The translations under genes were made by a program, and so were the position numbers. The notes under the pieces were generated by a model, which saw only the letters and a program-made list of their open reading frames with translations, was not told where the DNA came from and searched no databases. Positions 1 through 54,147 of a stretch of DNA of 64,000 nt are shown here, one piece after another (the stretch's first letter is position 1; every line of letters begins with the position of its first letter). The stretch lies in assembly GCF_056746865.1 (NCBI RefSeq), contig NZ_CM163382.1. One strand, written 5' to 3'.

Positions 1-171
1 TTGCAATGAAAATAACGCCCGCCTAGTATGTGCGCGTTTTCTTATTCCACAAACTGCAAGGAGGTAAATCATGACAAATCCTTTATCAATGACTCTTTGC
101 AGACCTTTCCAGGATTAATTCTTTTTTTCTTGCCCTGGATTCGTCTGCCATTTCCTGATTTTTATTCATAA

Positions 172-36042: not shown

Positions 36043-38918
<2,876 letters not shown>

Positions 38919-39355
38919 TTATCGTTCATGAGAAGCATAACGTAAAGGGAAGAGCTCGATTAGACGGCAGGATTTGTCAGGGGTTATGAACGAAATTCAT
39001 AAATCTGCTTGAGTGTTGCGATGAGTCGTGCAAGTTCGATATCCCTGCAATTCACAGTCTGATGAAGAAAAATGAATATCCATAAAAAATATATTGGTTT
39101 ATCCTGGTGTATATACCTACTTCGACGTATTCCCAATAGCGATTAATTAAAGACAGGTCATTATTATTCACTCTTAATAATGAATTATTCACTGCCCGCA
39201 GAGTAAGAAATATAACTTAAGTATCTATTTAATAACTTGCACAAAAAGCTAAATTTTCACCAATAAATAAAAATATAATCCCGCGCCCAACCACCTGATG
39301 AGTGGCTACAGACACTGGATATATTAGGTGGCGGTGTACTTTCTTACATAAAGGT

Positions 39356-39400
39356 ATTTCCTTTTCTGCGGAAAAGGAAATCGGGGATTTCCCGGTTTTT
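39356..39400 (+). terminator. terminator-like tandem hairpins plus U-tract in the eaeH leader
   Basis: 11 bp perfect stem atttccttttc-tgcg-gaaaaggaaat, then cggg-gattt-cccg, then gttttt; about 70 nt upstream of the eaeH start. Confidence 0.4.
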
Positions 39401-39468
39401 CTGACAAGCAGACGCCACTATTTGTGTCTGCCTATGTTCGTTAATTCGTTCATCAGGAAATTATCTCA

Positions 39469-42400
39469 ATGTCACGTTATAAAACAGGTCATAAACAACC
39501 ACGATTTCGTTATTCAGTTCTGGCCCGCTGCGTGGCGTGGGCAAATATCTCTGTTCAGGTTCTTTTTCCACTCGCTGTCACCTTTACCCCAGTAATGGCG
39601 GCACGTGCGCAGCATGCGGTTCAGCCACGGTTGAGCATGGAAAATACCACGGTAATTGCAGATAATAATGTGGAGAAAAATTTCGCGTCGTTTGCCGCAA
39701 ATGCCGGGACATTTTTAAGCAGTCAGCCAGATAGCGATGCGACACGTAACTTTATTACCGGAATGGCCACCGCTAAAGCTAACCAGGAAATACAGGAGTG
39801 GCTCGGGAAATATGGTACAGCGCGCGTCAAACTGAATGTCGATAAAGATTTCTCGCTGAAGGATTCTTCGCTGGAAATGCTTTATCCGATTTATGATACG
39901 CCGACAAATATGTTGTTCACTCAGGGGGCAATACATCGTACAGACGATCGTACTCAGTCAAATATTGGTTTTGGCTGGCGTCATTTTTCAGGAAATGACT
40001 GGATGGCGGGGGTGAACACCTTTATCGACCATGATTTATCCCGTAGTCATACCCGCATTGGTGTTGGTGCGGAATACTGGCGTGATTATTTGAAATTGAG
40101 CGCCAATGGTTATATCCGGGCTTCTGGCTGGAAAAAATCGCCGGATGTTGAGGATTATCAGGAACGCCCGGCGAATGGCTGGGATATTCGTGCTGAGGGC
40201 TATTTACCCGCCTGGCCGCAGCTTGGCGCAAGCCTGATGTATGAACAGTATTATGGTGATGAAGTCGGGCTGTTTGGTAAAGATAAACGCCAGAAAGACC
40301 CGCATGCTATTTCTGCCGAGGTAACCTATACACCAGTGCCTCTTCTGACACTGAGCGCCGGGCATAAGCAGGGCAAGAGTGGTGAGAATGACACTCGCTT
40401 TGGCCTGGAAGTTAACTACCGAATTGGCGAACCTCTGGAAAAACAACTCGATACAGACAGCATTCGCGAGCGTCGAATGCTGGCAGGCAGCCGCTATGAC
40501 CTGGTTGAGCGTAATAACAACATCGTTCTTGAGTACCGCAAATCTGAAGTAATCCGTATTGCTCTGCCTGAGCGGATTGAAGGTAAGGGCGGTCAGACAC
40601 TTTCCCTGGGACTTGTGGTCAGCAAAGCAACTCACGGACTGAAAAATGTGCAGTGGGAAGCGCCGTCATTACTGGCTGAAGGTGGCAAAATTACCGGTCA
40701 GGGTAGTCAGTGGCAAGTAACGCTCCCGGCTTATCGTCCAGGCAAAGACAATTATTATGCGGTTTCAGCGATTGCCTACGATAACAAAGGCAATGCCTCG
40801 AAACGTGTGCAGACAGAAGTGGTTATTAGCGGAGCTGGTATGAGCGCCGATCGTACGGCGTTAACGCTTGACGGTCAGAGCCGTATTCAAATGCTTGCTA
40901 ACGGTAATGAGCAAAAACCGCTGGTGCTGTCTCTGCGCGACGCCGAGGGCCAGCCAGTCACGGGCATGAAAGATCAGATTAAGACTGAACTAACCTTCAA
41001 ACCGGCTGGAAATATTGTGACTCGTACCCTGAAGGCCACTAAATCACAGGCAAAGCCAACACTGGGTGAGTTCACCGAAACTGAAGCAGGGGTGTATCAG
41101 TCTGTCTTTACTACCGGAACGCAGTCAGGTGAGGCAACGATTACTGTTAGCGTTGATGACATGAGCAAAACTGTCACTGCAGAACTGCGGGCCACGATGA
41201 TGGATGTGGCAAACTCCACCCTGAGCGCTAACGAGCCGTCAGGTGACGTGGTTGCTGATGGTCAGCAAGCCTACACGCTGACACTGACAGCGGTGGACTC
41301 CGAGGGTAATCCGGTGACGGGAGAAGCCAGCCGCCTGCGACTTGTTCCGCAAGACACTAATGGTGTAACCGTTGGTGCCATTTCGGAAATAAAACCAGGG
41401 GTTTACAGCGCCACGGTTTCTTCGACCCGTGCCGGAAACGTTGTTGTGCGCGCCTTCAGCGAGCAGTATCAGCTGGGCACATTACAACAAACGCTGAAGT
41501 TTGTTGCCGGGCCGCTTGATGCAGCACATTCGTCCATCACCCTGAATCCTGATAAACCGGTGGTCGGCGGTACGCTTACGGCAATCTGGTCGACAAAAGA
41601 TGCCTATGACAACCCTGTGACCAGCCTCACGCCGGAAGCGCCGTCATTAGCGGGTGCCGCTGCTGTAGGTTCTACGGCATCGGGCTGGACAAATAATGGT
41701 GATGGGACGTGGACTGCGCAGATTACTCTCGGCTCTACGGCGGGTGAATTAGAAGTTATGCCGAAGCTAAATGGACAGGATGCGGCAGCAAATGCGGCAA
41801 AAGTAACCGTGGTGGCTGATGCGTTATCTTCAAACCAGTCGAAAGTCTCCGTCGCAGAAGATCACGTAAAAGCCGGCGAAAGCACAACCGTGACGCTTAT
41901 TGCAAAAGATGCACATGGCAACGCTATCAGTGGTCTTTCGTTGTCGGCAAGTTTGACGGGGACCGCCTCTGAAGGGGCGACCGTTTCCAGTTGGACCGAA
42001 AAAGGTGACGGTTCCTATGTTGCTACGTTGACTACAGGCGGAAAGACGGGCGAGCTTCGCGTCATGCCTCTCTTCAACGGCCAGCCAGCAGCCACCGAAG
42101 CCGCGCAGTTGACGGTCATCGCTGGAGAGATGTCATCAGCTAACTCTACGCTTGTTGCGGACAATAAGACTCCAACGGTTAAAACGACGACGGAACTCAC
42201 CTTCACCGTGAAGGATGCGTACGGGAACCCGGTCACCGGGCTGAAGCCAGATGCACCAGTGTTTAGCGGTGCCGCCAGCACGGGGAGTGAGCGTCCTTCA
42301 GCAGGAAGCTGGACAGAGAAAAGTAATGGGGTCTACGTGTCGACCTTAACGCTGGGATCTGCCGCGGGTCAGTTGTCTGTGATGCCGCGAGTGAACGGCC

Positions 42401-43722
42401 AAAATGCCGTTGCTCAGCCACTGGTGCTGAATGTTGCAGGTGACGCATCTAAGGCTGAGATTCGTGATATGACAGTGAAGGTTAATAACCAACTGGCTAA
42501 TGGACAGTCTGCTAACCAGATAACCCTGACCGTTGTGGACAGCTATGGTAACCCGTTGCAGGGGCAAAATGTGACGCTGACCCTGCCGAAAGGTGTGACC
42601 AGCAAGACGGGGAATACAGTAACAACCAATGCGGCAGGTAAAGCGGATATTGAGTTGATATCAACCGTTGCAGGGGAACTTGAAATCGCGGCCGCGGTGA
42701 AAAACTCTCAGAAGACGGTCACGGTGAAATTCAACGCGGATGCCAGCACCGGTCAGGCAAACCTGCAGGTTGACACCGCCGTTCAAAAAGTGGCAAACGG
42801 CAAAGATGCCTTTACGCTGACGGCGACCGTTGAGGATAAAAACGGTAACCCTGTTCCAGGCACTCTGGTGACCTTTAATCTGCCCCGAGGTGTCAAGCCG
42901 CTTACTGGCGATAATGTCTGGGTGAAAGCCAACGATGAGGGGAAAGCAGAGTTGCAGGTGGTTTCCGTGACTGCCGGAACCTATGAGATCACGGCGTCGG
43001 CAGGAAATGACCAGCCTTCGGATGCGCAGACTATAACGTTTGTGGCCGATAAGGCGACCGCAACCGTCTCCGGTATTGAGGTGATTGGCAACTATGCACT
43101 GGCGGATGGCAAAGCCAAACAGACGTATAAAGTTACGGTGACTGATGCCAATAACAACCTGTTGAAAGATAGCGAGGTGACGCTGACTGCCAGCCCGGCA
43201 AATTTAGCTCTGGATCCCGATGGGACGGCGAAAACTAATGAGCAAGGGCAGGCTATTTTCACCGCCACGACCACTGTCGCAGCGAAATATACACTCACGG
43301 CGCAAGTGAGTCAGACCAACGGTCAGGTATCAACGAAAACTGCCGAATCTAAATTCGTCGCGGATGATAAAAACGCGGAGCTCACCGCATCATCTGATGT
43401 GCAATCGCTGGTGGCGGATGGGAAATCGACTGCGAAGCTGGAGGTTACCCTGTTCTCGGCAAATAACCCTGTTGGGGGGAATGTGTGGGTCGACATTGAG
43501 GCTCCGGAAGGAGTGACGGAGAAGGATTATCAATTCCTGCCGTCGAAAAATGACCATTTCGTGAGCGGAAAAATCACGCGTACATTTAGTACCAGCAAGC
43601 CTGGTGTCTATACGTTCACATTTAACGCCCTGACCTATGGCGGGTACGAAATGAAGCCAGTGACGGTGACCATAACCGCGGTGGATGCCGATACGGCAAA
43701 GGGCGAGGAGGCGATGAAGTAA
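39469..43722 (+). CDS. eaeH: intimin/invasin-family outer membrane adhesin with bacterial Ig-like repeats (EaeH-like), full length
   Basis: 1417 aa; N-terminal signal and beta-barrel region followed by many roughly 95 aa repeats (...TLTA.D..GNPV.G...). Confidence 0.82.
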   Translation: MSRYKTGHKQPRFRYSVLARCVAWANISVQVLFPLAVTFTPVMAARAQHAVQPRLSMENTTVIADNNVEKNFASFAANAGTFLSSQPDSDATRNFITGMATAKANQEIQEWLGKYGTARVKLNVDKDFSLKDSSLEMLYPIYDTPTNMLFTQGAIHRTDDRTQSNIGFGWRHFSGNDWMAGVNTFIDHDLSRSHTRIGVGAEYWRDYLKLSANGYIRASGWKKSPDVEDYQERPANGWDIRAEGYLPAWPQLGASLMYEQYYGDEVGLFGKDKRQKDPHAISAEVTYTPVPLLTLSAGHKQGKSGENDTRFGLEVNYRIGEPLEKQLDTDSIRERRMLAGSRYDLVERNNNIVLEYRKSEVIRIALPERIEGKGGQTLSLGLVVSKATHGLKNVQWEAPSLLAEGGKITGQGSQWQVTLPAYRPGKDNYYAVSAIAYDNKGNASKRVQTEVVISGAGMSADRTALTLDGQSRIQMLANGNEQKPLVLSLRDAEGQPVTGMKDQIKTELTFKPAGNIVTRTLKATKSQAKPTLGEFTETEAGVYQSVFTTGTQSGEATITVSVDDMSKTVTAELRATMMDVANSTLSANEPSGDVVADGQQAYTLTLTAVDSEGNPVTGEASRLRLVPQDTNGVTVGAISEIKPGVYSATVSSTRAGNVVVRAFSEQYQLGTLQQTLKFVAGPLDAAHSSITLNPDKPVVGGTLTAIWSTKDAYDNPVTSLTPEAPSLAGAAAVGSTASGWTNNGDGTWTAQITLGSTAGELEVMPKLNGQDAAANAAKVTVVADALSSNQSKVSVAEDHVKAGESTTVTLIAKDAHGNAISGLSLSASLTGTASEGATVSSWTEKGDGSYVATLTTGGKTGELRVMPLFNGQPAATEAAQLTVIAGEMSSANSTLVADNKTPTVKTTTELTFTVKDAYGNPVTGLKPDAPVFSGAASTGSERPSAGSWTEKSNGVYVSTLTLGSAAGQLSVMPRVNGQNAVAQPLVLNVAGDASKAEIRDMTVKVNNQLANGQSANQITLTVVDSYGNPLQGQNVTLTLPKGVTSKTGNTVTTNAAGKADIELISTVAGELEIAAAVKNSQKTVTVKFNADASTGQANLQVDTAVQKVANGKDAFTLTATVEDKNGNPVPGTLVTFNLPRGVKPLTGDNVWVKANDEGKAELQVVSVTAGTYEITASAGNDQPSDAQTITFVADKATATVSGIEVIGNYALADGKAKQTYKVTVTDANNNLLKDSEVTLTASPANLALDPDGTAKTNEQGQAIFTATTTVAAKYTLTAQVSQTNGQVSTKTAESKFVADDKNAELTASSDVQSLVADGKSTAKLEVTLFSANNPVGGNVWVDIEAPEGVTEKDYQFLPSKNDHFVSGKITRTFSTSKPGVYTFTFNALTYGGYEMKPVTVTITAVDADTAKGEEAMK

Positions 43723-43842
43723 TATTAAGAATATGAAAGTAACATTCTAATAAACAATAATGGCGTTGACATCTTCAACGCCATTATTTATTGAATTGCC
43801 TGACAGTAGTCTCGTTATAAATTCATGTAAACATCGCTACAG

Positions 43843-53905: not shown

Positions 53906-54147
53906 GAGTGATATGAAGTCTGGACATAAACCTGAAGTCGGCATACGAGGTTGTGAATAGCGTTAAGGACAACCTGACTTAACCCCGTTCCGTCATGGTT
54001 ATGCTGCTCTTCTGTAAATATCCTGGCATTAGTAATGCCAGGATATTTACAGTGAAAAAGACAGGAATCCATTCCTGAAGACGGGCTCCCTTCCCGGTCA
54101 TTGTCACTATAGTTTTATACAGGCACTCTCTGTCAGAATGCTGTTTA

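Follow-up and report, generated by a model that had tools for sequence, protein, structure and literature searches.

A conserved hairpin module upstream of the Escherichia coli adhesin gene fdeC (eaeH): a candidate leaky terminator in the putative mRNA leader

The fdeC locus and its upstream region

The DNA analysed here, referred to as the window, is a stretch of 64,000 nucleotides from contig NZ_CM163382.1 (NCBI RefSeq assembly GCF_056746865.1). Its fdeC (eaeH) gene, at 39469-43722 on the plus strand, is intact and encodes an inverse-autotransporter adhesin of 1417 aa as annotated by RefSeq at the identical locus of strain 118UI. This adhesin, FdeC/EaeH, is widely conserved in E. coli, has been put forward as a vaccine candidate and is notoriously difficult to express in vitro; H-NS, alkaline pH, contact with host cells and a temperature of at least 39 °C are known to control fdeC (PMC11143625; PMC3324786). 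The upstream neighbours of fdeC are two aldo/keto reductase genes, both on the minus strand, so that the preliminary description of this DNA was right in stating that there is no plus-strand gene upstream to terminate. The hairpin element considered below sits in the 565-bp intergenic gap between one of these genes (38052-38903) and fdeC. This intergenic region is 100% identical to that of E. coli strain 118UI, in which RefSeq annotates nothing in the gap, and the RefSeq record of K-12 carries no annotation at the equivalent position (the K-12 U00096.3 coordinate is the window coordinate plus 274,888). The features of the region are listed below, H1 to H3 being the three hairpins.

39236-39285, plus strand: 5' part of the upstream block that appears to travel with fdeC; holds TATAAT at 39274-39279, followed by a G+C-rich discriminator, CCCGCGCCC
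39286-39325, plus strand: stretch under little constraint, belonging to a long leader as its 5' part or forming a spacer; ends in TATATT (39320-39325)
39326-39355, plus strand: conserved 5' flank of H1, GGTGGCGGTGTACTTTCTTACATAAAGGT, recognised from alignments and folds
39356-39381, plus strand: H1, ATTTCCTTTTC-TGCG-GAAAAGGAAAT, a perfect A/U-rich stem of 11 bp with the 4-nt loop TGCG; -12.5 kcal/mol
39381-39395, plus strand: H2, a short G+C hairpin of the form (U/C)CGGG-loop-CCCGG
39396-39400, plus strand: U-tract, TTTTT, followed by CTGA (to 39404); tail of the candidate terminator H2
39406-39433, plus strand: H3, with its core GCAGACGC/GTGTCTGC at 39408-39431; -12.4 kcal/mol
39434-39468, plus strand: invariant pre-ATG region with a TTCGTT(A/C)A tandem and the Shine-Dalgarno AGGA (39455-39458)
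39469-43722, plus strand: fdeC

Of 5426 complete E. coli genomes, 5015 contain the intergenic region once; over 5033 genomes the copies per genome amount to a median of one place and a maximum of two. The same E. coli genome search reported nine or ten copies of this region on records typed as plasmids. A REP/BIME-type repeat was considered for the element and rejected, as it is single-copy across the 5033 genomes and a covariance model finds no second copy of it in the window. A scan of 38500-40000 against Rfam, with E values up to 10 allowed, returned only noise and no riboswitch, ROSE, fourU or other family.

A protein-anchored scan for FdeC orthologues, taking one genome per species, found true orthologues (>90% aa identity) in Escherichia alone, namely in E. 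sp. E1V33, in E. whittamii and in E69, a divergent lineage labelled E. coli. The 75 other distinct loci retained by the scan are paralogous inverse autotransporters of at most 57% identity, and none of these 75 contains the H1 motif or matches the covariance model built on H1-H2-H3. As judged from these searches, the leader element is not common to inverse-autotransporter genes generally but occurs only with true fdeC orthologues in Escherichia. In E69 a gadA/gadB-like glutamate decarboxylase gene (locus L009, 730-2160, minus strand) adjoins fdeC and replaces the aldo/keto reductase and LysR genes, and the upstream homology between E69 and the window begins at CTTGCACAAAAAGC, around 39236 and about 235 nt before the ATG. 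Because the upstream neighbour differs and homology starts only there, these ~235 nt appear to travel with fdeC. In another genome, E. coli FDAARGOS_943 (locus L006, ~750-1454), an IS4-like element, ISEc60, lies directly after H2 and replaces the T-tract, the remaining leader and the fdeC start.

Structure and conservation of the hairpins

The preliminary description had placed an 11-bp perfect hairpin, a second short hairpin and a U-tract on the plus strand about 70 nt before the eaeH start, and the sequence agrees throughout, with 68 nt between the end of the U-tract and the fdeC ATG (39469). The core of H2 in the window allele reads CGGG-GATTT-CCCG (39382-39394) and is extended by an outer wobble pair, U39381.G39395; its predicted stability is -7.2 kcal/mol, and values as low as -10.5 kcal/mol are reached in other alleles. 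The conserved 5' flank of H1 (39326-39355) can fold, in the predictions, into a weak hairpin at 39337-39356 or pair with the AUG region. An 81-nt stretch folds with -23.7 kcal/mol (z = -2.7), and 1 of 200 shuffles is equally stable. A scripted count found seven perfect hairpins in the window whose stem has at least 11 bp and whose loop has 3-8 nt, against 0.16 expected from Markov shuffles, and several of the other six possess a terminator-type G+C stem and a T-tract. One of these, a 14-bp perfect hairpin at 43756-43788, located 34 nt past the fdeC stop and accompanied by weak T-runs on both strands, is probably fdeC's own terminator and possibly a bidirectional one. The longest perfect inverted repeat of the window lies elsewhere, at 54012-54052, with arms of 20 nt and 1 nt between them (CTGTAAATATCCTGGCATTA / TAATGCCAGGATATTTACAG).

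Between E69 and the window, 31.5% of the 4-fold degenerate sites (70 of 222) differ in the first 1350 nt of fdeC. The differences in the upstream region are distributed as follows.

39286-39339: 19 of 54 positions differ in E69; neutral relative to the 4-fold sites (p = 0.63)
39340-39405 (H1, H2 and the U-tract): 5 of 66 positions differ; p = 4.7e-5 relative to the 4-fold sites
39406-39433 (H3): 9 of 28 positions differ; the stem is kept
39434-39468 (pre-ATG): 0 of 35 positions differ; p = 7.5e-6 relative to the 4-fold sites

Such a pattern indicates that the block formed by H1, H2 and the U-tract is under strong purifying selection. The 35-nt pre-ATG stretch, invariant across Escherichia, contains a tandem direct repeat, TTCGTTAA-TTCGTTCA, at 39437-39452. 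The constrained, and presumably functional, unit covers about 39326-39468 and takes in H3 and the invariant ribosome-binding-site region; of the interval 39356-39400 originally given for the element, the 5' boundary holds, but the unit as a whole is larger.

The natural variation was compiled from genomes of E. coli and of other Escherichia species and from 117 metagenome contigs, which together gave 31 distinct variants of 161 nt, with the pre-ATG region, and hence the 3' side of the long-range helix discussed below, fixed in the metagenome set by the search anchor. The U-tract is invariant but for one metagenome contig. The stem of H1 is unchanged in all major lineages, while its loop varies (TGCG, TGTG or TACG), and variants that disrupt H1 are rare in the set: two G-to-A changes in the 3' arm, one C-to-A change in the 5' arm and one deletion of 1 nt. 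A further metagenome contig (L170) has lost 30 nt at about 39344-39373, and with them the greater part of H1, H2 and all that follows it being untouched; this is a naturally occurring variant without H1 or else an error of assembly.

The loop of H2 (39386-39390) is GATTT in the window, as it is in 396 of 5034 E. coli records (about 8%), and AAATC in the remainder; sister species have AAATT, AAATA or AAATTA. GATTT is the exact reverse complement of AAATC, and the H2 stem is the same in both alleles. Because the two loops are exactly reverse-complemented across an unchanged stem, what appear to be three SNPs are one inversion event, which shows that the sequence and orientation of the loop are unconstrained and that the stem is constrained. 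Inversion of hairpin loops by template switching at short inverted repeats (quasipalindrome mutagenesis) is known from chloroplast non-coding DNA, and template-switch inversion of loops has been proposed as a source of RNA hairpins. The H2 loop conforms to that process in being exactly reverse-complemented between lineages with the stem kept, but the likeness concerns how the fdeC element mutates and not its function. No sign of reversible switching of the H2 loop was seen. The only candidate antiterminator, GGAAAUC/GAUUUCC, which overlaps H1, is confined to the ~8% allele, so that the inversion leaves most lineages without it.

The substitutions also bear on whether the element acts as RNA or as DNA, and on which strand. 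Changes in the H2 stem comprise U.G to C-G and, at two further pairs, G-C to G.U, the sole break being found in E. whittamii. In H3, E69 carries a compensatory G-C to A-U double change, the outer A.C mismatch has been repaired independently to G-C or to A-U, and a G.U pair is replaced by G-C or A-U in other lineages. The wobble states of H2 and H3 are standard pairs on plus-strand RNA only, and would be C.A mismatches on the minus strand or in a symmetric DNA site. This pattern favours H2 and H3 as plus-strand RNA structure; a minus-strand terminator was rejected because its wobble states would be C.A mismatches. Covariation statistics are weak, with two pairs showing double changes, both in H3, and four such cells, a number reached by 4 of 500 shuffles. 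H1 displays invariance and zero covariation, as would a DNA operator, and its substitutions are silent on the question.

An operator is indeed conceivable for H1, a 26-bp perfect palindrome that could bind a dimeric regulator of fdeC, such as the LuxR-type EcpR/MatA, and whose RNA hairpin would then be incidental. The strictly invariant arms and variable centre are what a two-half-site operator would be expected to show, the arms hold TTCCT (39358) and AGGAA (39375), EcpR/MatA reportedly recognises TTCCT boxes, and ecpR itself lies within the window at ~29.5-30.1 kb, about 9 kb from the element. However, TTCCT/AGGAA occur at ~2 per kb across the window with no enrichment at H1, the changes in H2 and H3 obey the pairing rules of plus-strand RNA (wobbles being mismatches in DNA symmetry), and an operator leaves the U-tract directly after H2 unexplained. 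We consider this reading quite unlikely.

Candidate promoters, possible termination and translation initiation in the putative leader

A matrix scan placed sigma-70 -10 candidates at 39211, 39250, 39274 and 39320, all upstream of 39326, and returned no sigma-70-like -10 downstream of 39356, such scores being so common that the predictions do not discriminate. The TATAAT at 39274-39279 is perfect and is the only -10-like hexamer kept in all lineages; it is the presumptive promoter -10. TATATT at 39320-39325, which scored 8.4 in the scan, is lost in E69. A sigma-32 promoter at 39236-39266 was rejected: the K-12 sequence CTTGCAC-N15-CCCCCATAA, which resembles a sigma-32 promoter, is unconserved, the window reading CACCAAT and E69 TATTTAC at the CCCCAT part. 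Two candidates for a leader peptide, a 9-codon ORF at 39299 and a 97-aa ORF with a GTG start at 39302, were likewise rejected, since both are broken in E69 by loss of the start codon or a 1-nt indel, and neither the ORF list nor the E69 alignment reveals a small conserved ORF spanning the element.

A sigma-E-like sequence, GGAAATC (39376-39382)-N17-TCTGA (39400-39404), overlaps the 3' arm of H1, H2 and the T-tract. If it were a promoter, transcription would start at about 39411 and the structure would lie outside the mRNA; a related possibility is that the hairpins insulate fdeC, or the divergent reductase genes, from stray transcription in an AT-rich, H-NS-bound region. The promoter model for sigma E has a -35 element GGAACTT with the core GAAC, a -10 element TCAAA or TCTGA and a spacer of 15-19 nt, 16 being preferred (PMC1312014; PMC3326320), into which the TCTGA and the 17-nt spacing fit. 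The sequence upstream is A/T-rich, sigma E is heat-responsive, and a U-rich run follows H2 on the minus strand as well, which makes bidirectional insulation conceivable. Nevertheless, the sigma-E promoter was rejected because the core C of the -35 element is missing (GAAA in place of the GAAC described for both promoter clusters); ECF sigma factors require near-consensus promoters (PMC3326320), and eaeH is absent from the main text of the sigma-E regulon paper (PMC1312014). A start at ~39411 would moreover truncate H3, a hairpin kept paired by compensatory changes, within its 5' arm, the wobble changes are incompatible with a minus-strand RNA hairpin, and no sigma-70-like promoter was predicted downstream of 39356. 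That the structure lies outside the mRNA is, in our judgement, very unlikely.

It is tentatively proposed that H1, H2 and H3 constitute a cis-acting RNA module in the fdeC leader, in which H2 and the U-tract form a leaky intrinsic terminator; we regard this as a real possibility that falls somewhat short of being probable. The fdeC mRNA would possess a structured 5' leader of ~135-185 nt transcribed from a putative promoter at or upstream of 39320. H1 would fold first during transcription, followed by H2 directly against H1 and then by UUUUU, whereupon a fraction of RNA polymerases would stop ~70 nt before the start codon. Termination of this kind would be leaky and probably constitutive, would reduce fdeC expression in addition to the known silencing by H-NS, and would set free a short RNA of ~70-115 nt derived from the leader, while read-through transcripts would fold H3 and the U-tract would then be able to pair with the Shine-Dalgarno sequence. 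The structure, its linkage to fdeC, its conservation and the substitutions compatible with plus-strand RNA are shown here, and from them we infer that the element is transcribed, that polymerase may terminate at its U-tract and that expression may be affected.

The anatomy of an intrinsic terminator is present, with a G+C stem of 4-6 bp that closes a loop of 5 nt and is followed immediately by UUUUUCU. In a d'Aubenton-Carafa type score, computed with ViennaRNA energies, the window/K-12 allele with the outer U.G pair obtains -18 to +11, which is marginal and missed by a strict scan; the common C allele obtains +23 to +27, and the gene-end terminators in the window 13-45. Since shuffles give only about two matches scoring at least 10 per strand per 64 kb, one terminator-grade match inside a given 200-nt leader is unlikely to arise by chance. 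The simple terminator pattern, on the other hand, is not rare (5 found vs 3.1 expected in 2.5 kb), and H2 in the window allele is short and weak (-7.2 kcal/mol), with a tail of only five U. The Term-seq and premature-terminator tables for K-12 hold no eaeH entry near 314,28x, as is expected of a locus that is H-NS-silenced in K-12. In the literature and the published tables we found neither a mapped transcription start nor a mapped RNA 3' end at this locus, and in the literature nothing linking fdeC/eaeH to an RNA thermometer, an attenuator or a small RNA.

There are precedents for termination within leaders. Premature 3' ends are widespread in E. coli 5' UTRs (PMC7815308), and in the greA leader two of every three transcripts end at a terminator, which gives rise to the short GraL RNAs (PMC2836576). 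The fdeC element resembles greA/GraL and the 5'-UTR terminators detected by Term-seq in that a sense-strand stem-loop and U-tract lie between promoter and start codon with no gene upstream, and it is predicted likewise to stop part of the transcripts and to release a short RNA. It differs from them in that H2 is shorter and weaker, is directly preceded by an A/U-rich perfect hairpin and has a U-tract complementary to its own Shine-Dalgarno sequence; termination at fdeC is moreover a prediction. Classical attenuators and riboswitch platforms (trp, pyrBI, T-box) also have a terminator hairpin in the leader, but lineage alignments and Rfam revealed in the fdeC leader no conserved, mutually exclusive antiterminator, no leader peptide and no aptamer or other ligand-binding fold. 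Since no alternative structure is conserved, classical regulated attenuation is unsupported, and any regulation of the fdeC terminator would need to rely on temperature or on a factor acting in trans. The earlier suggestion of an attenuator or regulatory RNA element controlling the adhesin is accordingly divided: the linkage to fdeC, the purifying selection and the plus-strand-RNA substitutions speak for a regulatory RNA element, whereas regulated attenuation is left with neither a conserved antiterminator nor a conserved leader peptide.

The short RNA could itself be the functional product, as a small RNA gene with a promoter at ~39274 or ~39320, an RNA of ~70-115 nt ending at H2 and 39326-39355 as its single-stranded seed, fdeC being transcribed by read-through or separately. 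A conserved unstructured stretch, two hairpins and a U-tail on the last of them is the architecture of many enterobacterial small RNAs, conservation starts at ~39326 directly past the -10-like TATATT, and there are documented small RNAs that arise when transcription ends prematurely within a leader (PMC2836576; PMC7815308). However, the U-tail is short (5 U), the Rfam scan assigns the RNA to no family, the TATATT is lost in E69 and the element is never found apart from fdeC. We judge a small RNA gene decidedly unlikely as an account of its own; it largely overlaps the leaky-terminator explanation and does not exclude it.

A different proposal, that the hairpins neither terminate nor sense but only protect the fdeC mRNA from RNase E or 5'-end-dependent decay, appears highly improbable to us. 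Stem-loops at the 5' end do protect E. coli mRNAs such as ompA, and the fdeC leader contains stable conserved hairpins of which H1 would be near the 5' end if transcription started at ~39330-39350. Stabilisation, however, explains neither the U-tract placed exactly after the G+C hairpin nor the invariance of the CUGA and of the 35-nt region before the AUG.

Folding of the leader RNA, which the preliminary description had suggested as a check, formed H1, H2 and H3, and for a 137-nt leader the consensus fold and the minimum-energy folds of 7 of 7 lineages include a helix in which UUUUCUGA (39397-39404) pairs with UCAGGAAA (39453-39460), a segment that covers the Shine-Dalgarno AGGA; the helix was found in both consensus and single-sequence folds. 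In some folds ACAU..AGGUA (39346-39356) pairs additionally with the spacer and the AUG. It may be that the module exerts translational control, possibly thermosensing, by keeping the ribosome-binding site closed, and in the thermosensing version this weak helix of A-U and G.U pairs would open from 39 °C upwards, as a fourU element does, and so explain the published temperature threshold of FdeC. For the 137-nt leader the central anti-Shine-Dalgarno pair has a probability of 0.47-0.90 and the Shine-Dalgarno bases are unpaired with a probability of 0.04-0.16. Both partners of the helix are invariant, including the CUGA after the U-tract, which is dispensable for a terminator. In EHEC, FdeC reportedly becomes detectable only once the temperature reaches 39 °C, and in APEC it is reported to be induced at 42 °C (PMC11143625, citing Easton 2014); a fourU thermometer is known in the E. 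coli virulence gene chuA (PMC9002310).

Against this stand several controls. Between 13 and 21% of dinucleotide shuffles of the leader occlude the Shine-Dalgarno sequence at least equally, and the fdeC initiation region ranks 20th of 42 window genes for accessibility, results by which Shine-Dalgarno occlusion as something statistically special was rejected. All pairs of the helix are invariant, so that covariation is impossible, and with a 183-nt leader the helix probability drops to 0.12-0.5 in several lineages. The temperature control of FdeC may be wholly due to H-NS, and Rfam gave no ROSE or fourU match even at E values up to 10. The predicted probability that the Shine-Dalgarno bases are unpaired is 0.05 at 37 °C and 0.07 at 42 °C, a negligible opening; the proven ibpA thermometer is equally flat in the same model, so that such melting curves do not discriminate for or against a thermometer. 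Translational control by this helix is in our view unlikely.

The comparison with known fourU and ROSE thermometers (Salmonella agsA, E. coli/Shigella chuA/shuA, ibpA) shows the same balance. As in those systems, a U-run and the AGGA are predicted to form a helix of A-U and G.U pairs, and the gene encodes a virulence-associated surface protein with temperature-dependent expression. In contrast to them, the fdeC pairing is long-range, joining segments ~50 nt apart and closing a multiloop, instead of a local hairpin; it is statistically unexceptional, matches no Rfam family and is predicted only, and its U-run doubles as a terminator tail. A bolder, and rather improbable, combination of the two readings is a dual-purpose heat sensor, in which H2 and the U-tract would form a temperature-labile stop and, in read-through transcripts, the U-tract would act as a fourU-like anti-Shine-Dalgarno sequence, the two together setting the FdeC threshold of at least 39 °C independently of H-NS. 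The loop inversion would then shift the set-points of the lineages, as the exchange of GAUUU and AAAUC would turn an anti-Shine-Dalgarno-like heptamer into a Shine-Dalgarno-like one.

Implications for FdeC expression

The element upstream of fdeC is real, conserved and specific to this gene, and it probably represents a previously undescribed RNA control element of an ordinary kind. Should it prove to be merely a leaky terminator, it would be another example of a common class. If the leader does stop transcription or hide the ribosome-binding site, a post-initiation layer would be added to the control of fdeC, and this would account for the much stronger conservation of the 130 nt preceding the ATG as compared with synonymous sites. 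It would also provide a concrete target (H2, the U-tract and 39397-39404) for making FdeC-expressing strains. The element is of value because it provides a post-initiation control point, open to testing, for an adhesin of whose expression little is understood.
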